DNA from: Verrucomicrobiota bacterium
GTDB taxonomy: Bacteria; Verrucomicrobiota; Verrucomicrobiia; Limisphaerales; UBA11358
DNA length: 64,000 nt
Reading direction: 5' to 3'
Assembly (NCBI GenBank): GCA_028873125.1
Contig: JAGWMQ010000003.1
Span: 15,295-79,294 of the forward strand
Under the pieces are notes generated by a model. That model had not been told where the DNA came from. It saw nothing but the letters and a program-made list of their open reading frames with translations, and did not search any database. Positions 2,992 through 47,470 of the stretch are shown here, piece after piece. Positions within the stretch are counted from its first letter, which is position 1; each line of letters starts with the position of its first letter. Both the position numbers and the translations under genes were made by a program.

Positions 2992-3681
2992 ATGTTCAAA
3001 CCGGCCGACTTGTTCGATTTGGCGCAGACCGGGCACGCCGCGCTCTTTGACGGCGCGGAGTTTGCCTGGGAGGCGTTGAAAAAAATCGAGGGCTACCTGG
3101 CCGCGAACCTGAAGCCGGCGCTGCACAACACCTGCCAAGGCGTCGCCTTCATCGGCGAGCAGGTCTTCATCGGCCAAGGGACGGTGGTGGAGGATGGCGT
3201 GATGATCAAAGGGCCGGCCTTCATCGGCAAGAACTGCAAAATCCGCCACAACGCCTACCTCCGCGAAAACGTCATCATCGGCGACGGCTGCGTGGTGGGC
3301 AACTCCACCGAAATCAAGAACTCGCTGCTGTCCAACGGCGCGCAGGCGTCGCACTTCAATTACGTCGGCGACTCCATCCTCGGCCACAAGGCGCACCTCG
3401 GGGCGGGCGTGAAGATCTCCAACTTCAAACTGTTCCCGGGCAACATCACCGTGGAAAGGGACGGCGCGCCATTTGACACCGGCCTGCGCAAGTTCGGCGC
3501 GCTGCTGGGCGACGGCGCGGAAGTCGGGTGCAACGCCGTGCTCAATCCGGGCAGCGTCCTAGGCCGCGGCGCGGTGATTTACCCGAACGTCTTCTGGCGC
3601 GGCATCCTGCCCGCGAACATGATCGCCAAAAACAAGGCCGGAATCGAAGTCGCCGTCAAACGGCCGAGGGAGGCGAATTAG
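2992..3681 (+). CDS. Left-handed beta-helix (hexapeptide repeat) acyltransferase, GlmU C-terminal-like
   Basis: Successive hexapeptide turns: IGQGTVVEDGVMI, IGKNCKIRHNAYL, IGDGCVVGNSTEI, LGHKAHLGAGVKI. Confidence 0.6.
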   Translation: MFKPADLFDLAQTGHAALFDGAEFAWEALKKIEGYLAANLKPALHNTCQGVAFIGEQVFIGQGTVVEDGVMIKGPAFIGKNCKIRHNAYLRENVIIGDGCVVGNSTEIKNSLLSNGAQASHFNYVGDSILGHKAHLGAGVKISNFKLFPGNITVERDGAPFDTGLRKFGALLGDGAEVGCNAVLNPGSVLGRGAVIYPNVFWRGILPANMIAKNKAGIEVAVKRPREAN

Positions 3682-5230: not shown

Positions 5231-6046
5231 GTGCTCAACGACGCCATCATCTGGAAACGCCTCAATTCGCCGCGCCAATTGTTTCTGATCGCCGGACCGT
5301 GCGCGATTGAAAATGAACAACTCTGCCTGCGCGTCGCCGCCGCGCTGAACAAGGCCTGTGCGCGGCTCGGCATCTTTTACGTCTTCAAGGCCAGCTTCGA
5401 CAAGGCCAACCGCACCTCCGGCAAATCGTTTCGCGGCGTCGGCCTCGAACGCGGGCTGGGAATCCTCGCCAAAGTCCGCGCCGAATTCGGGGTGCCGGTG
5501 CTCACCGACATCCACAACGAGGCGCACGCCGCCGTCGCCGGCGAGGTCGTGGACATCCTGCAAATCCCAGCGTTCCTCTGCCGCCAGACGGATTTGATCG
5601 AGGCCGCCGCCGTGACCGGCCAGATCGTCAACATCAAGAAGGGCCAGTTCCTGTCGCCGGCGGAAATGGGGCGGGTCGTGGAAAAGGCCCGGAGCGCCGG
5701 CGCTGAAAAAATCCTGGTCACCGAGCGCGGCACGACCTTCGGCTACAACAACCTCGTGGCCGACCTGCGCTCCATCCCGATCATGAAGCGGTTCGGTTGC
5801 CCGGTGGTTTTCGACGCGACGCATTCGGTGCAATTGCCGGGCGGCGGCGGCGACAAGTCCTCCGGCCAGTGCGAATTTGCGCCGGTGCTGGCCCGCGCGG
5901 CGCTGGCGGCGGGCGCGAATGGACTGTTCATCGAAACCCATCCGCAGCCCAACAAGGCGTTGAGTGACGGGCCGAACATGGTCCCGCTCGCCGAAATGCC
6001 GGGGTTGTTGAAGGACTTGCTGAAAGTCTTCAACGCGCTGACATGA
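5231..6046 (+). CDS. kdsA: 3-deoxy-8-phosphooctulonate (KDO8P) synthase
   Basis: [51 protein letters not shown]. Confidence 0.95.
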
Positions 6047-6177
6047 AAAATTCCAAGTTCCAAATTCCAAGTTCCAAAGAAAATTCAAGCTCCAAGCTCC
6101 AAACCTTTGCCGAAGTATTTTCCGAACTTGGAATTTGGAGCTTCTTTGGAGGTTGGAAATTGGAATTTGGAACTTGA
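6047..6177 (+). repeat. ttccaag-periodic long imperfect hairpin, copy 1; fills the kdsA|kdsC intercistronic gap
   Basis: Left arm is aattccaagttccaaattccaagttccaaagaa... Right arm is ...ttctttggaggttggaaattggaatttggaactt. The arms are reverse complements around a loop of about 23 nt. Confidence 0.85.
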
Positions 6178-6183
6178 TTGGTC

Positions 6184-14326: not shown

Positions 14327-17300
14327 ATGTCTGAAATCTCCAAAGCCTACGAACCGCAGTCCGTCGAGGAAAAGTGGTATCAATTTTGGCTCGACCAGAA
14401 ATGCTTCGTCGCCCATCCGCAATCGCCCAAGCCCGCCTATTCCATCGTCATCCCGCCGCCGAACGTCACCGGCGTGCTCACCCTGGGCCACGTCCTCAAC
14501 AACACCATCCAGGACATCCTCGCCCGCAAGGCGCGCATGGACGGCAAGGAAGTCCTCTGGCTGCCCGGCACCGATCACGCCGGTATCGCCACCCAGACCG
14601 TCGTCGAGAAGGCGTTGAAGAAGGCGGGTGAAATCAAACACCGCGACGACTTGGGCCGCAAGAAATTCCTCGAACGCGTCTGGCAATGGAAGGAAAAGCA
14701 CGGCGGCATCATCATCCAGCAATTGAAAAAGCTCGGCGCGTCGTGCGATTGGACACGTGAACGGTTCACGATGGACCCGGAGTATTCGCGCTGCGTGCAG
14801 AAGGTGTTCGTGGAGCTTTACAAAAAGGGCCTCATCTACCGCGGCAAACGCATGGTCAACTGGTGTCCGGCTTCGCTCACCGCGCTGTCCGACGAGGAAG
14901 TGGTGATGAAGGAGCAGAAAGGCTCGCTCTATTACTTCAAAGTCGAGGTTGTTGACATGGGGAGCGCGACCGTCCCGGTTGCAGATTCTGGCGTCTCGCC
15001 AGAATCCTCTTCGCGCGCGGGAGATCCGATTGGCGCGACGCCAATCGGAGCAGGCGAGACGCCCCCGCTCCGCGGAGAAAAAATTTTCCTGACCATCGCC
15101 ACGACGCGGCCGGAGACAATTCCCGGCGATACCGCCCTGGCCGTGAATCCGAAGGACCCACGCTACGCCAAATTCATCGGCAAACACGCCATCCGACCGT
15201 TACCTGCTGAATTACCGCGCGAGCAAAAGCTGATTCCCGTCATCGGCGACGAGCACGTGGATTTTGAATTCGGCACCGGTGTGCTCAAGGTGACGCCGGC
15301 GCACGACAAGGCGGACTTTGAAATTGGCCAGCGGCATAATCTGCCGCAGATTGACATCATGCATCCCAACGGCCACATGAACCAACTGGCCGGAAAGGAT
15401 TTGAACGGGCTGGACCGGTTCAAGGCGCGCAAAGTTGCTTTGGAAAAACTCGCGGAGCTTGGCGTTTTCGAAAAGGAGGAGCCATACACCAATAACGTCG
15501 GCTTCAGCGAGCGCGCCGACGTGCCGATTGAACCGCGCCTGAGCGAGCAATGGTTTTTGAAATATCCGAGCGTGGAGAAAGCGAGGAATTGCGTGGATTG
15601 GGGGAGCGCGACCGTCCCGGTTGCCAATTCCGGCGTCGCGCCGGAATCTTCGCCAGACAAATTTAAGGTTGCCGAACAAGCATTGGACGCGACGCCCAAT
15701 GCAGCACGCGAGACGCGTGCGCTCCCCGATAAAATGCGCTTCCACCCACAGCGCTGGGCGAAGGTTTATGACCATTGGATGGGCGGTTTGCAGGACTGGT
15801 GCATCAGCCGCCAGCTTTGGTGGGGACACCGGATTCCGGTGTGGAAGAAAATGTTTGGAGGAGGAATTCCGAATTCCAATCCGTTAAGCGCAATTGAGCA
15901 AAAGGCACAGTTTGATTCCGTGGAAAAACTACAAATCGTGAAAGGCATGAAAGAAATCCGATCCACGGAAACATCTTCTGCAAGTATGTTCGGGCAAACT
16001 TTCTTCAAGTTCGAGAAATCTATTTTTGAGAACGAACATTTGAATTTACCCACGACGACCACGACAGTTGTTACAGCTTTAACTTATGATGCACACGGTG
16101 CCCACGCGTTGAACGACGCAGGTTTTGTCCAAGACCCCGACGTGCTCGACACCTGGTTCAGTTCCTGGCTCTGGCCGTTTGCCACGATGGGCTGGCCGGA
16201 GCAGACCGAGACGTTGAAAAAATTTTATCCGACCACCGATCTCGTCACCGGGCCGGACATCATTTTCTTCTGGGTCGCGCGCATGATCATGGCCGGCTAC
16301 GAGTTCATGGGTGAGATGCCGTTCCGCAACGTCTATTTCACCGGCATCATCCGCGACAAGCAGGGGCGCAAGATGTCCAAGAGCCTCGGCAATTCGCCCG
16401 ACCCGCTCGACCTCGTCGGCAAATACGGCGCCGACGCGCTCCGGTTCGGCACGATGCGCAGCGCGCCGCTGGGCCAGGACATTTTGTTCGACGAACAAAA
16501 CGTCGAGTTTGGCCGCAATTTCTGCAACAAGCTCTGGAATGCCTGCCGCTTCCGCCAACTGCAGGGCGGCGAAGTGCAGGGCGAAATCGTCCCGCAACTG
16601 CTCACGAGCGACGACAAATGGATTCTGCTCAAGCTCGACGCCGCCATCCGCGAAATCAACGCCGCGTTCGCCGAATACAAATTCAGCGACGCGACGGCGA
16701 CGCTCCACCGCTTTTTCTGGAGCGAGTATTGCGACTGGTATGTCGAGGCGAGCAAGGCGGCGTTGGGGAACGCGCGCGTCCCGCGTGCGGATTCCGGCGT
16801 CGCGCCGGAATCTTCGTCTGACAACCATAACCTTGAAGAACGAGCATCGGGCGCGACGCCCGACGCGACAACCGGGACGGTCGCGCTCCCCGAAAAATTT
16901 GATGTGCGCACGGCGAACACGCTCGCGGTGATTGATTTTGTGCTCTCGCACACGTTGCGGCTGTTCCATCCGTTCCTGCCGTTCATCACCGAGGAATTGT
17001 GGCACGGGATGGGTTACGCCGACAACATGCCGGACGACCAGGGCGGCCGGACCATCATGTTCGCGCCGTGGCCGAAGCCGCTGGACGACGATTTCAAGGC
17101 GCACTACGGCTTGAGCGAACAGGATGAAGAATTCATCGAGGCGCGGAACGCATTGATTGCACTAGGCCGCAATCTGCGCCGCAACGCCAACATTCCGGCG
17201 AACAAAAAGGTGAAATTCATCTTCAAACCCAAGGGCCGGGCCTCGGCGAGCGACCTCGGGGTTTTGAAGTCCCTGCTCAATGCCGAAACCGTCGAGGTGA

Positions 17301-17587
17301 ATCCCCATTTTCAGCCCGCGAAAAATGTACTGGCGGCTCGCCACAAACTCGGCGAACTCCTTCTGCCGCTCGAAGGGTTGATTGACGTGGAAGCCGAAAC
17401 AGCGCGGCTGGAAAAGGAACTGGATAAAATCGAAGCAGAAATCGCGAAGGTCGAGCAGAAGCTGGCCAATCCGAATTTTACGCGGAAAGTCCCGCCGAAT
17501 GTTTTGGCGGAGCACCGGCAACGCCTTCTGGACTGGCTGGGCAAACTCGCGCACGTGAAATCGGCGTTGGCGGCGCTGCAAAATTGA
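14327..17587 (+). CDS. valS: Valine--tRNA ligase carrying four in-frame insertions
   Basis: PPPNVTGVLTLGH (HIGH), TTRPETIPGDTA, WCISRQLWWGHRIP, KMSKSLGN, and a C-terminal coiled coil. 1086 aa. Confidence 0.95.
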   Translation: MSEISKAYEPQSVEEKWYQFWLDQKCFVAHPQSPKPAYSIVIPPPNVTGVLTLGHVLNNTIQDILARKARMDGKEVLWLPGTDHAGIATQTVVEKALKKAGEIKHRDDLGRKKFLERVWQWKEKHGGIIIQQLKKLGASCDWTRERFTMDPEYSRCVQKVFVELYKKGLIYRGKRMVNWCPASLTALSDEEVVMKEQKGSLYYFKVEVVDMGSATVPVADSGVSPESSSRAGDPIGATPIGAGETPPLRGEKIFLTIATTRPETIPGDTALAVNPKDPRYAKFIGKHAIRPLPAELPREQKLIPVIGDEHVDFEFGTGVLKVTPAHDKADFEIGQRHNLPQIDIMHPNGHMNQLAGKDLNGLDRFKARKVALEKLAELGVFEKEEPYTNNVGFSERADVPIEPRLSEQWFLKYPSVEKARNCVDWGSATVPVANSGVAPESSPDKFKVAEQALDATPNAARETRALPDKMRFHPQRWAKVYDHWMGGLQDWCISRQLWWGHRIPVWKKMFGGGIPNSNPLSAIEQKAQFDSVEKLQIVKGMKEIRSTETSSASMFGQTFFKFEKSIFENEHLNLPTTTTTVVTALTYDAHGAHALNDAGFVQDPDVLDTWFSSWLWPFATMGWPEQTETLKKFYPTTDLVTGPDIIFFWVARMIMAGYEFMGEMPFRNVYFTGIIRDKQGRKMSKSLGNSPDPLDLVGKYGADALRFGTMRSAPLGQDILFDEQNVEFGRNFCNKLWNACRFRQLQGGEVQGEIVPQLLTSDDKWILLKLDAAIREINAAFAEYKFSDATATLHRFFWSEYCDWYVEASKAALGNARVPRADSGVAPESSSDNHNLEERASGATPDATTGTVALPEKFDVRTANTLAVIDFVLSHTLRLFHPFLPFITEELWHGMGYADNMPDDQGGRTIMFAPWPKPLDDDFKAHYGLSEQDEEFIEARNALIALGRNLRRNANIPANKKVKFIFKPKGRASASDLGVLKSLLNAETVEVNPHFQPAKNVLAARHKLGELLLPLEGLIDVEAETARLEKELDKIEAEIAKVEQKLANPNFTRKVPPNVLAEHRQRLLDWLGKLAHVKSALAALQN
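14959..15071. repeat. Intragenic structured palindromic element, copy A (in valS)
   Basis: Starts ggggagcgcgaccgtcccggttg. Hairpins at 14985-15005 (attctggcg/cgccagaat) and 15026-15048 (ccgattggcg/cgccaatcgg). The right end is degenerate. Confidence 0.8.
15601..15727. repeat. Intragenic structured palindromic element, copy B (in valS)
   Basis: ggggagcgcgaccgtcccggttg ... attccggcgtcgcgccggaat ... gcattggacgcgacgcccaatgc ... cacgcgagacgcgtgcgctcccc. Confidence 0.85.
16765..16891. repeat. Intragenic structured palindromic element, copy C (in valS)
   Basis: ggggaacgcgcgcgtcccgcgtg ... attccggcgtcgcgccggaat ... tcgggcgcgacgcccga ... caaccgggacggtcgcgctcccc. The right end is the exact reverse complement of the left end of copies A and B. 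Confidence 0.85.
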
Positions 17588-19255: not shown

Positions 19256-22042
<2,787 letters not shown>

Positions 22043-45588: not shown

Positions 45589-45716
45589 GAAGTTCCAAGT
45601 TCCAAGTTCCAAGTCCCAAGTTCCAAGGAAAATCCAAGCTCCAAGTTCCAAGACTTGCCGATGCCAATTTGAATTTTGGAGCTTGGGGCTTCTTTGGAAC
45701 TTGGAACTTGGAATTT
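45589..45716 (-). repeat. ttccaag-periodic long imperfect hairpin, copy 2; fills the gspE|gspF intercistronic gap
   Basis: On the coding (minus) strand: aaaattccaagttccaagttccaaagaa ... ttggaacttggaacttggaacttctga-ATG. Same orientation relative to transcription as copy 1. Confidence 0.85.
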
Positions 45717-45721
45717 TCATT

Positions 45722-47470
45722 TCATCTCCCCAACGCGGCGCCGGTCGGCGCCAAGCTTGCCGTCGCATCCAGCGTTTCATTCCGGGTCACGCGCGCCACT
45801 TCCTTGGCGGTGGTCACGCTCAAGACTTCCTCGACGGTGGTGATGCCCAGCCGCACCAGCCGCCAGCCGTCTTCGGCCAGCGTCTTCATGCCGGCGCGGC
45901 GGGCGGCGTCGCGTATCTGGTCGGTCGAGGCGCTTTTCAGGATCAACCGCCGGATTTCATCGTCGCTGTCCATCCACTCGAAAATGGCGTGCCGGCCGAA
46001 GAATCCGGTGTTGCGGCACTCGCGGCAGCCGATCGAGCGGTAAATTGTCGCGTTGGCCGGCAGCCCCGCCTGCGCCTTGAAGGCCTGCGCCGTCGGCGAA
46101 TGGTCCGGCTGTTTGCAATGTCCGCACAGCACGCGCACCAGGCGTTGTGCCAGCACGGCTTCGAGGGAGGAGGCGACCAGATACGGCTCCACGCCCATGT
46201 CCACCAGCCGGGTGAGGGCGCCGGGCGCGTCGTTGGTGTGGAGCGTGGAAAAGACCAGGTGGCCGGTCAGGGAGGCCTGCACGGCGATCTGCGCCGTCTC
46301 GGCGTCGCGGATTTCGCCGATGAGCACCACGTCCGGGTCGTGGCGCAGGATCGAGCGCAACCCGCGCGCGAAGGTCAGGCCGGATTTTTCATTGACCTGG
46401 ATCTGGTTGACGCCCTTGAGTTGATACTCCACCGGGTCTTCGATGGTGATGATTTTGCGAACCGAGTCGTTGATGGCGTTGAGCGCGGTGTAAAGCGTCG
46501 AGGTCTTGCCGCTGCCGGTCGGGCCGGTGACCAGGATGATGCCGTGCGGCAGCTCGAGGACGCGCTGGAAACAATCCAGTTCGCGCCGGTCCATGTCCAG
46601 TTCCTTCATGCCGCGCAGGGTGGCGTTCTGCCGCAGCAACCGCATCACCACCGCCTCGCCATGCAGCATCGGTATCACCGAAACGCGGATGTCCACCTCG
46701 GCGTCCTCGATGCGCACCTTGATACGGCCGTCCTGGGGCAGGCGTTTTTCGGCGATGTTGAGGTGGCTCAAAATTTTCACGCGCGAGACGATGGCCGGCT
46801 GGAATTGTTTCAATTGCCCCGGCACCGGCACGTCCTGCAACACGCCGTCAATCCGGTAGCGGATGCGGAATTCGTCCTCGAAGGGCTCCAGGTGGATGTC
46901 CGAGGCGCGCAACTCGATGGCGTCCTTGAGGACCTGGTTGACGAAACGGATGATGGAGGCCTCGTCTTCGGCGGCGGAGTCGAGATTGGTGTCCTCGGCG
47001 TTTTCGTCCACGAACTGAAAGGACTTGTCCTCCTCCAGCGTGCCGATGGTGTCGGCGCCCACGCCCAGGCGTTTTTTCATTTCCCGTTGAATCGCTTCGC
47101 TGGAGGCGAGGACGGGCTTGAGGTTCAAGCCCGTCAACGTTTTCAGGGCGTCCAACCCCTGGGTGGCGAAGAGGCGGCTGGTGGCCACTTCCACCGTGCC
47201 GTTCAGTCGCCGAAGGGGCAGCAATTCTTCCTTGAGAAGGATACGGGCGGGAAAAAGGGAGAGAAGCTGACGGTCCGGCTCCACGTCGTCCAGCGTCGTG
47301 TAGGCCAGATCATACTCGCCGGCCAGCCAGCGCAGCACGTCCTCCTCGCCTCGCAATACGAGCTTGGAGGCGGCCAGGGCTTCGGCGTCGGCCGCCGAAA
47401 GTTGCCGGGCCGCGATCATGCGTTCCAGCAACGGCCGCGGCGGGGTTTCCTGGACGTCAGACGGACTCAT
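45722..47470 (-). CDS. gspE: Type II secretion ATPase GspE
   Basis: N-terminal MshEN-like domain; Walker A GPTGSGKTST; Asp/His boxes; tetracysteine CGHC...CRECRNTG. Confidence 0.9.
   Translation of the reverse strand: MSPSDVQETPPRPLLERMIAARQLSAADAEALAASKLVLRGEEDVLRWLAGEYDLAYTTLDDVEPDRQLLSLFPARILLKEELLPLRRLNGTVEVATSRLFATQGLDALKTLTGLNLKPVLASSEAIQREMKKRLGVGADTIGTLEEDKSFQFVDENAEDTNLDSAAEDEASIIRFVNQVLKDAIELRASDIHLEPFEDEFRIRYRIDGVLQDVPVPGQLKQFQPAIVSRVKILSHLNIAEKRLPQDGRIKVRIEDAEVDIRVSVIPMLHGEAVVMRLLRQNATLRGMKELDMDRRELDCFQRVLELPHGIILVTGPTGSGKTSTLYTALNAINDSVRKIITIEDPVEYQLKGVNQIQVNEKSGLTFARGLRSILRHDPDVVLIGEIRDAETAQIAVQASLTGHLVFSTLHTNDAPGALTRLVDMGVEPYLVASSLEAVLAQRLVRVLCGHCKQPDHSPTAQAFKAQAGLPANATIYRSIGCRECRNTGFFGRHAIFEWMDSDDEIRRLILKSASTDQIRDAARRAGMKTLAEDGWRLVRLGITTVEEVLSVTTAKEVARVTRNETLDATASLAPTGAALGR

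Follow-up and report, generated by a model that had tools for sequence, protein, structure and literature searches.

In-frame palindromic elements in valyl-tRNA synthetase and MgtA-type ATPase genes of Verrucomicrobiota: a probable REPIN family with a RAYT partner in related genomes

What kind of element lies in frame inside protein-coding genes, folds back on itself as a quasi-palindrome and keeps its stems paired while their sequences change? The question is raised by a 64-kb stretch of DNA from a Verrucomicrobiota bacterium (contig JAGWMQ010000003.1, positions 15,295 to 79,294; in what follows, the window), in which four copies (A-D) of such an element were catalogued, all of them in frame within long open reading frames (ORFs). 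A first-pass annotation had described the copies as a three-stem architecture closed by interchangeable outer arms. Here we report that the element consists of two inverted half-units with two local hairpins each, together with a terminal complementarity of about 9 bp, that its stems covary, and that it is probably a non-autonomous mobile element of the REPIN type. It would belong to the world of repetitive extragenic palindromic (REP) sequences and REP-associated tyrosine transposases (RAYTs), and recognition of folded single-stranded DNA by a RAYT is the probable source of the covariation.

Three of the copies lie in the gene for valine--tRNA ligase (valyl-tRNA synthetase, ValRS; 14327-17587, + strand; 1086 aa, identical to protein P0121 of a Verrucomicrobiota metagenome-assembled genome, MAG): copy A (14959-15073, +, 115-nt core), copy B (15601-15727, +, 127 nt, encoding GSATVPVANSGVAPESSPDKFKVAEQALDATPNAARETRALP) and copy C (16765-16891, +, 127 nt). 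Copy D (20746-20857, +, 112 nt) lies in the gene for a magnesium-transporting P-type ATPase of the MgtA type (19256-22042, +, 928 aa). Compared with solved homologues, all four are clean insertions, located between residues 205 and 209 (A), 363 and 379 (B) and 658 and 661 (C) of T. thermophilus ValRS, and between residues 522 and 528 of the MgtA structure 8uy7 (D). A search of the window with the arm pattern, allowing up to three mismatches, gave eight matches where 0.32 were expected, and none of 100 shuffles reached eight. With a covariance model of the half-unit, exactly eight strong matches were obtained (55-67 bits, E <= 2e-10; next match 13 bits), these eight half-units having belonged to the training set of the model.

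A half-unit begins with a 5'-GGG(G/T)AGC tag, which is followed by a 7-bp hairpin with a YCY loop (the arm hairpin) and a 9-10-bp hairpin (the inner hairpin), conserved at its GGCG-YCY-CGCC top and hypervariable at the base; the two inverted half-units of a copy are separated by a variable spacer. The family consensus reads GGGGAGC-GCACGCG-YCY-CGCGTGC-TG-[N5-6 GGCG-YCY-CGCC N5-6]-spacer-[mirror image]. Left arm, hairpin 1, hairpin 2 and right arm were located, in this order, at 14959-14982, 14984-15006, 15025-15047 and 15050-15073 in copy A; at 15601-15624 (left arm, or REP hairpin), 15627-15647, 15680-15702 (beyond the spacer) and 15704-15727 in copy B; at 16765-16788, 16790-16812, 16844-16866 and 16868-16891 in copy C; and at 20746-20769, 20772-20792, 20810-20832 and 20834-20857 in copy D. 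The inner hairpins quoted in the first-pass annotation were recovered in place: hairpin 1 is attccggcg-tcg-cgccggaat in B and C, attctggcg-tct-cgccagaat in A and gtttggcg-ccc-cgccaaac in D, and hairpin 2 was confirmed in A, B and C, with one A.C mismatch in B.

It is in the arms that the two descriptions part. The combinations noted earlier are present (B is 1...2', C is 2...1' and D is 2...2', the sole window copy with both arms of the same variant), and copy A has variant 1 on its left and a third variant, now decayed, as its right arm. Variant 1 (GCGACCG-TCC-CGGTTGC) and variant 2 (GCACGCG-TCY-CGCGTGC) are, however, two of at least ten co-varying versions of a local hairpin and not swapped closing arms. 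Because the arms of A, B and C are unlike variants, a single long outer stem is ruled out for these copies, and the claim that every copy closes its own outer stem had to be given up: arm-to-arm pairing in A, B and C is confined to the terminal 9 bp or so and part of the rest, with 9-10 of the 14 stem positions paired across the arms, compared with 6-7 of 7 within each arm. Among 48 paired elements, the arm hairpins are paired at 6.9 of 7 positions locally and at 12.5 of 14 from arm to arm; in the 13 elements with unlike arms, A, B and C included, arm-to-arm pairing is at most 11 of 14 and local pairing still 6-7 of 7. The inner hairpins are paired at 8.4 of 9 positions locally, compared with 11 of 18 across the element, and are not mutually complementary.

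The covariation of the stems was measured on 97 distinct half-units, taken from 48 paired elements at 42 loci and in the window and aligned with MAFFT without structural fitting. Cells forming a pair made up 93.4% of the total, as against 73.5% in shuffled controls and 26-52% with slid partners; 311 cells had changed on both sides (87 shuffled, 41-93 slid), and the covariation score was 0.511 (0.140 shuffled, 0.06-0.11 slid). All four Watson-Crick types were seen at five inner-stem pairs. The compensatory changes proposed in the first-pass annotation are genuine and far above both controls, and a few recent duplicates were rejected as their source in view of the number of distinct half-units and loci.

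A genome scan with a degenerate arm pattern gave at least 119 loci, and about 90% of the loci among these listed matches are Verrucomicrobiota MAGs of several orders. In 885 kb, 199 arms and 51 inverted pairs were found, the pairs being 76-200 nt apart and mostly 100-160 nt long. Three loci (L029, L022 and L089) are labelled Bifidobacteriaceae and one (L088) Proteobacteria; at least two of them (L029 and L088) carry paired elements of the same or a closely related family, and the paired element of L029 sits inside an IleRS-like gene. The taxonomic labels of these four MAG contigs are probably binning errors.

The first-pass annotation had placed the paired structure at the level of either a DNA cruciform or an RNA, and the mismatches that the stems tolerate bear on both. 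With half-units oriented 5'-GGGG..., G.T outnumbered A.C by 31 to 5 in the arm hairpins and by 21 to 11 in the inner hairpins; related sequences are among those counted, and the events are not independent. In 21 intragenic copies read on the sense strand, G.U and A.C numbered 11 and 2 in the left half and 4 and 11 in the right half. It follows from this mirror-image asymmetry that each half is wobble-tolerant on the strand reading 5'-GGGGAGCGC, and this tag-reading strand differs between the left and the right half. The wobble pattern is predicted neither by a single mRNA fold nor by a symmetric cruciform; it fits a strand-specific recognition, as single-stranded DNA, of the REP but not of the inverse REP. 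In E. coli, TnpA-REP binds the single-stranded REP hairpin mainly by its secondary structure and makes base-specific contacts to the 5' tetranucleotide, whereas the inverse REP is not bound (PMC3479197).

The same numbers make it unlikely that the whole element folds as RNA, since one RNA would need tolerance in both halves, and we regard it as very improbable that the element is selected for folding within the ValRS and MgtA mRNAs, with effects such as those suggested for transcribed REPs on mRNA stability, translation or co-translational folding. On either strand, the copies do fold far more stably than shuffled sequences (z-scores of -3.7 to -7.9), the window copies all belong to essential genes and are transcribed with them, G.U pairs are present, and Di Nocera et al. 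(PMC3733652) argue for an action of many REPs as RNA. However, folding is just as good on the antisense strand, identical elements occur in intergenic DNA in either orientation, and a search of the whole window against Rfam at gathering score gave no family match.

A partner enzyme for the family was found in related genomes. All-against-all comparison of the ORFs of family loci yielded one shared segment of about 170 aa, 45-70% identical, in unrelated proteins, namely MetH (L007), AlaRS (L021) and RecG (L105), and also in L102 and L060; in L021 it is an insertion relative to the AlaRS of L073. The segment matched the NCBIfam model NF047646 (REP-associated tyrosine transposase) with 70-83 bits (cut-off 80) over positions 4-145 of 146 and the Pfam model PF01797 (Y1_Tnp) with 27-35 bits, and it contains the transposase motifs HUH (as PDHVHLL) and the catalytic tyrosine (as Y(I/V)xxNP). 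A database search with the segment returned 380 homologues, mostly 200-240 aa long and named RayT by JGI. Among the best 120 of these 380, the N-terminal arm peptide (GSARASR) was present in 106, the HUH motif in 115 and the Y..NP motif in 108, with a median of 13 residues before the left arm and 2 after the right arm. The RAYT is flanked by units of the element in L007, L021, L102, L105 and L128. The first-pass annotation had called for an associated transposase; one bracketed by the element's half-units thus exists in related genomes, whereas none was found in the window by tblastn.

In L007, L021 and L105, both half-units bracket the segment, and its reading frame is that of the host protein; the complete, in-frame RAYT genes are located at 3012-3588 (L007, MetH), 408-1033 (L021, AlaRS) and about 5400-6162 (L105, RecG). 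The copy in RecG is located between helicase motifs Ia and II, and the insertion in MetH recurs in several metagenomic proteins (P0003, P0056, P0061 and P0062). A stand-alone RAYT (L128, 1501-2124) lies inside an operon, with TGAcgATG upstream (stop 2 nt before ATG) and an overlapping ATGA downstream; 13 codons of the ORF precede its left half-unit, and 2 codons separate the end of its right half-unit from the stop. Read as DNA, L007 and L128 have no in-frame start codon between the arm and the conserved YSKRRLPHFE, and the RAYT of L128 seems to depend on host signals for its expression. The 290-nt copy in L060 is internally deleted and is an intermediate towards the miniature form.

The ends of the element were compared with those of other mobile sequences. 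The position of the tag is invariant; most copies have GGAG there (GGGGAGC) and a minority GTAG, with the GTAG-type tag GGGTAGCGC in L007, L085, L091 and L108. A sister family, AAGTAGGGC..., is present in the ValRS of P0129. Membership of the CGTC-tagged REPs was considered since CGTC occurs at the stem-loop junction of the hairpins, and was set aside because the CGTC families differ in AT-rich stem starts, loops of 4-5 nt and the lack of a transposase (PMC3733652), whereas the present family combines a 5' G(G/T)AG tag with a RAYT. The flanks nearly always show a T directly before GGGG and a purine (R) directly after CCCC, or else the palindrome extends, and no direct target-site duplication was seen flanking the copies inspected. 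The element is likewise not a classical, DDE-derived miniature inverted-repeat transposable element (MITE): inverted termini are present, but there is no direct flanking repeat, and the partner enzyme is of the Y1 and not of the DDE type. In many intergenic copies, the palindrome continues for 3-6 nt past GGGG...CCCC, for example with ggtcc before and ggacc after it or with atttcc before and ggaaat after it (L023 229-388, L055 7881-7982, L086 1331-1432, L116 5144-5245). The extension is variable in sequence with its complementarity kept, and is missing from the intragenic copies of the window.

Like the insertion sequences IS200/IS605, the system has a Y1 HUH transposase, subterminal hairpins of the kind recognised as single-stranded DNA, a tetranucleotide at the hairpin foot and no target-site duplication. 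In contrast to them, its protein scored only 19-24 bits with the NCBIfam IS200 model (cut-off 55) while lying at or near the RAYT cut-off, and its ends are inverted copies of one unit instead of distinct left and right ends on one strand.

Why can such an element reside in coding sequence? The peptides encoded by the window copies follow the pattern G-S-A-(T/R)-V-P ... (T/A)-R-A-L-P, and the G-S-A frame is open in both orientations in four of four window copies, as had been expected in the first-pass annotation whichever arm came first. It is open in 84% of the 51 paired elements; for the other frames, the figure is 57-69%. Of these 51 pairs, the window copies among them, about 12 occupy long ORFs in frame, and the frame used is G-S-A every time; the remainder look intergenic and occur in either orientation. 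In all 21 copies from ValRS and MgtA, the core length is 1 mod 3 and the frame is the same, whereas elements at large fall evenly into the three mod-3 length classes. With stop-free ends and a G-S-A frame open either way, frame-keeping copies can therefore persist in essential proteins.

The three ValRS sites were compared among 120 orthologues. Each of them is either empty (EIAEAPGTFL at A, AVVADGKMK at B and AVLQGSDA at C, with many orthologues empty), or occupied by this element, or occupied by peptides from several other repeat families. Site A is also occupied in L108, P0124, P0134 and P0227, and site C in P0222, P0124 and others. The peptides of other families, carried by orthologues within P0122-P0240 at the sites aligned to window positions 14950-15085 (A), 15590-15735 (B) and 16755-16900 (C), include VGQASRLS...DRRDACPT, which derives from the GTAG-tagged REP AAGTAGGGCAGGCG-TCT-CGCCTGCCC, as well as SPSPLGGERAGVRG...GGEGE, SSRRESAQT...SGLTSAAT and ERNADLPIG...GDRRSD. 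The ValRS of P0127, P0143, P0161 and P0196 (1137-1195 aa) carry a PF18798 domain; P0143 has an extra segment of about 150-180 aa at site B, while P0127, P0161 and P0196 have an ordinary site B and their extra length elsewhere.

At the DNA level, same-site copies were compared in nine orthologues (eight and L108). Copies at the same site in different species were 81-99% identical, whereas the 4-fold sites of the surrounding gene were only 56-75% identical. Positions differing between same-site copies made up 6% of the termini, 10% of the arm stems, 12% of the loops, 10% of the inner stems and 28% of the spacer, the stems being kept about three times better than the spacers. Among the variable stem pairs, 12 were compensated, 6 were kept as wobbles and 10 were broken; pair 5 of hairpin 1 at site A, for example, is C:G in P0227 and P0134, T.G in P0124 and T:A in the window. 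Site A of P0156 holds the type found at site C in the window, so that one site has different subtypes in different species, and sites A and B of one gene are 97% identical in P0227 and in P0134.

These figures bear on the possibility that the stems are kept up by mutation alone, with intrastrand template switching copying one stem arm from the other so that a mismatch is reverted or compensated, and with gene conversion between dispersed copies perhaps adding to it. Such template switching at quasi-palindromes during replication is reportedly established for bacteria through the work of Ripley and of Lovett and colleagues. The balance of compensated, wobble-preserved and disrupted pairs at the same sites agrees with it, as do the identities across species in excess of those at the host 4-fold sites; together with the identity between sites and the switching of subtypes, these identities suggest homogenisation or turnover. 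As the source of the covariation we nevertheless consider it unlikely: it does not predict that G.T should exceed A.C on one particular strand, set by the orientation of the element itself, it leaves the invariant 5' tag and the loop-proximal bases unexplained, and it cannot create the family or the link to the RAYT but only acts on top of them. The ValRS sites point to hot spots with turnover or homogenisation on top of the stem constraint, and in-situ selection, gene conversion and templated quasi-palindrome mutation are not separable with the same-site data.

The same comparison argues against the inserts being kept for their peptide as a functional linker or loop module, with the palindromy a by-product of ancestry, a reading to which we assign hardly any probability. 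Inserts do persist at three ValRS loops in many species, their frame in genes is always G-S-A...A-L-P, and some site-C peptides are very similar among orthologues. However, the spacer, the sole part without stem constraint, evolves fastest, and many orthologues are empty at the same positions or carry unrelated repeat-derived peptides there. Pfam also gave no match for the element peptides. A word-indexed protein search with the 42-aa element peptide gave no candidates and was uninformative, as was an exhaustive search of representative sequences with the same peptide, whose five weak matches include a ValRS fragment, a spurious ORF across intergenic copies and an unrelated repeat protein. An AlphaFold2 model of ValRS built with 53 close homologues shows the inserts as low-confidence coil, which is not diagnostic because the model is poor overall (predicted local distance difference test score, pLDDT, 54.7).

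The reading that we consider probable remains that of a REPIN-type element recognised by a RAYT. By analogy with TnpA-REP of E. coli, the RAYT would bind each half-unit as a folded single-stranded DNA hairpin together with its 5' tag, and only copies that keep their stems would stay mobilisable or be copied. Filtering of this kind would yield compensated stems and a tolerance of G.T, but not of A.C, on the tag-reading strand. Copies with a frame-keeping core length (1 mod 3) would then persist in permissive surface loops of essential proteins, where they would be translated as inserts rich in Gly, Ser, Ala and Pro. We infer that the source genome encodes a RAYT and that this RAYT mobilises the window copies.

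Several observations weigh against this reading and temper it. Besides the lack of a RAYT in the window and the relatedness of the sequences in the wobble counts, no RAYT of the window's own subtype (GSATVPV / ADSGVAPESS) was found among those recovered, which have GSARASR-type arms and come mostly from Chthoniobacterales; the tag is mostly GGAG and not the canonical GTAG; and selection at the transposition step alone does not explain the retention of stems at the same sites across species. A more far-reaching version would see a REPIN-RAYT lineage specialised for reading frames, with coding ends, a RAYT that lacks its own start and is made by read-through of the host ORF or by operon coupling, and miniatures that recolonise the same loops of essential proteins (the three ValRS hot spots) with their hairpins actively maintained. 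Such maintenance, as opposed to decay, may come from in-situ selection or from RAYT-dependent homogenisation. We hold this version to be conceivable but rather doubtful.

How does the family compare with known systems? As in the REPIN-RAYT systems of Pseudomonas and E. coli, two inverted REP units are joined by a spacer, a conserved 5' tag stands beside a GC-rich hairpin, the partner enzyme, a Y1/HUH transposase, fits the RAYT model of NCBIfam and is encoded by a gene that the same units bracket, the stems vary yet stay paired, and dimers of unlike units are common. All 51 inverted pairs, the four window copies included, show the paired units typical of these systems. Unlike REPIN units, which have one hairpin, the present half-units have two (about 47-50 nt); the tag is mostly GGAG, whereas the REP tag is GTAG; and the units form part of the RAYT reading frame itself, in which no start codon stands between the arm and the catalytic core. 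Classical REPINs are also extragenic, whereas about one quarter of the present paired copies are in frame in genes, and all four window copies are intragenic.

Intragenic REPs as such are not new. According to Di Nocera et al. 2013 (PMC3733652), Opitutus terrae, a member of the Verrucomicrobia, has the highest number of in-frame intragenic REPs, and tRNA synthetases are among the hosts of intragenic REPs in X. oryzae, E. litoralis and S. alaskensis. The GTAG-17, -18 and -19 families of O. terrae described there (peptides GTGVPPV, GRDARAT and VGPALAAG) are shorter, single-hairpin REPs with other sequences. The same paper describes TIRtrons and TIRYTs, tyrosine transposases with long, partly 'double palindromic' inverted repeats that start with GGGGWSAS and may overlap ORF ends, and whose repeat dimers are dispersed in the genome; the present family, the two-hairpin unit, the ValRS hot spots and the host-embedded RAYTs do not appear in the text of that paper considered here.

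The Rickettsia palindromic elements (RPEs) are in-frame palindromes in unrelated housekeeping genes that are translated as extra loops compatible with function (PMC10969869). The present element resembles them in its palindromes of about 100-150 nt that lie in frame in housekeeping genes and are translated as a loop, a functional analogy only. It differs in phylum, in its apparently unrelated sequence and in being mostly intergenic outside the window, and, whereas RPEs have no known dedicated transposase, a RAYT partner was identified here. A second, unrelated palindromic repeat of about 135 nt, rich in TTCCAAG/CTTGGAA pentamers, is also present in the window (6047-6181 and 45590-45725); its two copies are both intergenic and in opposite orientation.

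This study adds a newly recognised member to the REP/REPIN-RAYT systems, where earlier work on Opitutus terrae and Rickettsia had already described intragenic REPs. The new member is unusual in having two hairpins per unit, a tag that is mostly GGAG, ends that are coding sequence, ValRS hot spots and RAYTs embedded in host proteins. The study defines by sequence a REPIN family that extends through the phylum Verrucomicrobiota and has a RAYT as its identified partner, and the mirror-image G.T/A.C asymmetry between its halves is a sequence-only test of DNA- versus RNA-level selection on a palindrome. Since one essential aminoacyl-tRNA synthetase holds three copies, at sites that act as hot spots for insertion in over 100 orthologues, ValRS offers a natural system in which to study the addition of protein loops by mobile hairpins, an idea put forward for Rickettsia. 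If their translation is confirmed, the RAYTs in frame in MetH, AlaRS and RecG would represent an unusual route of expression for a domesticated transposase.

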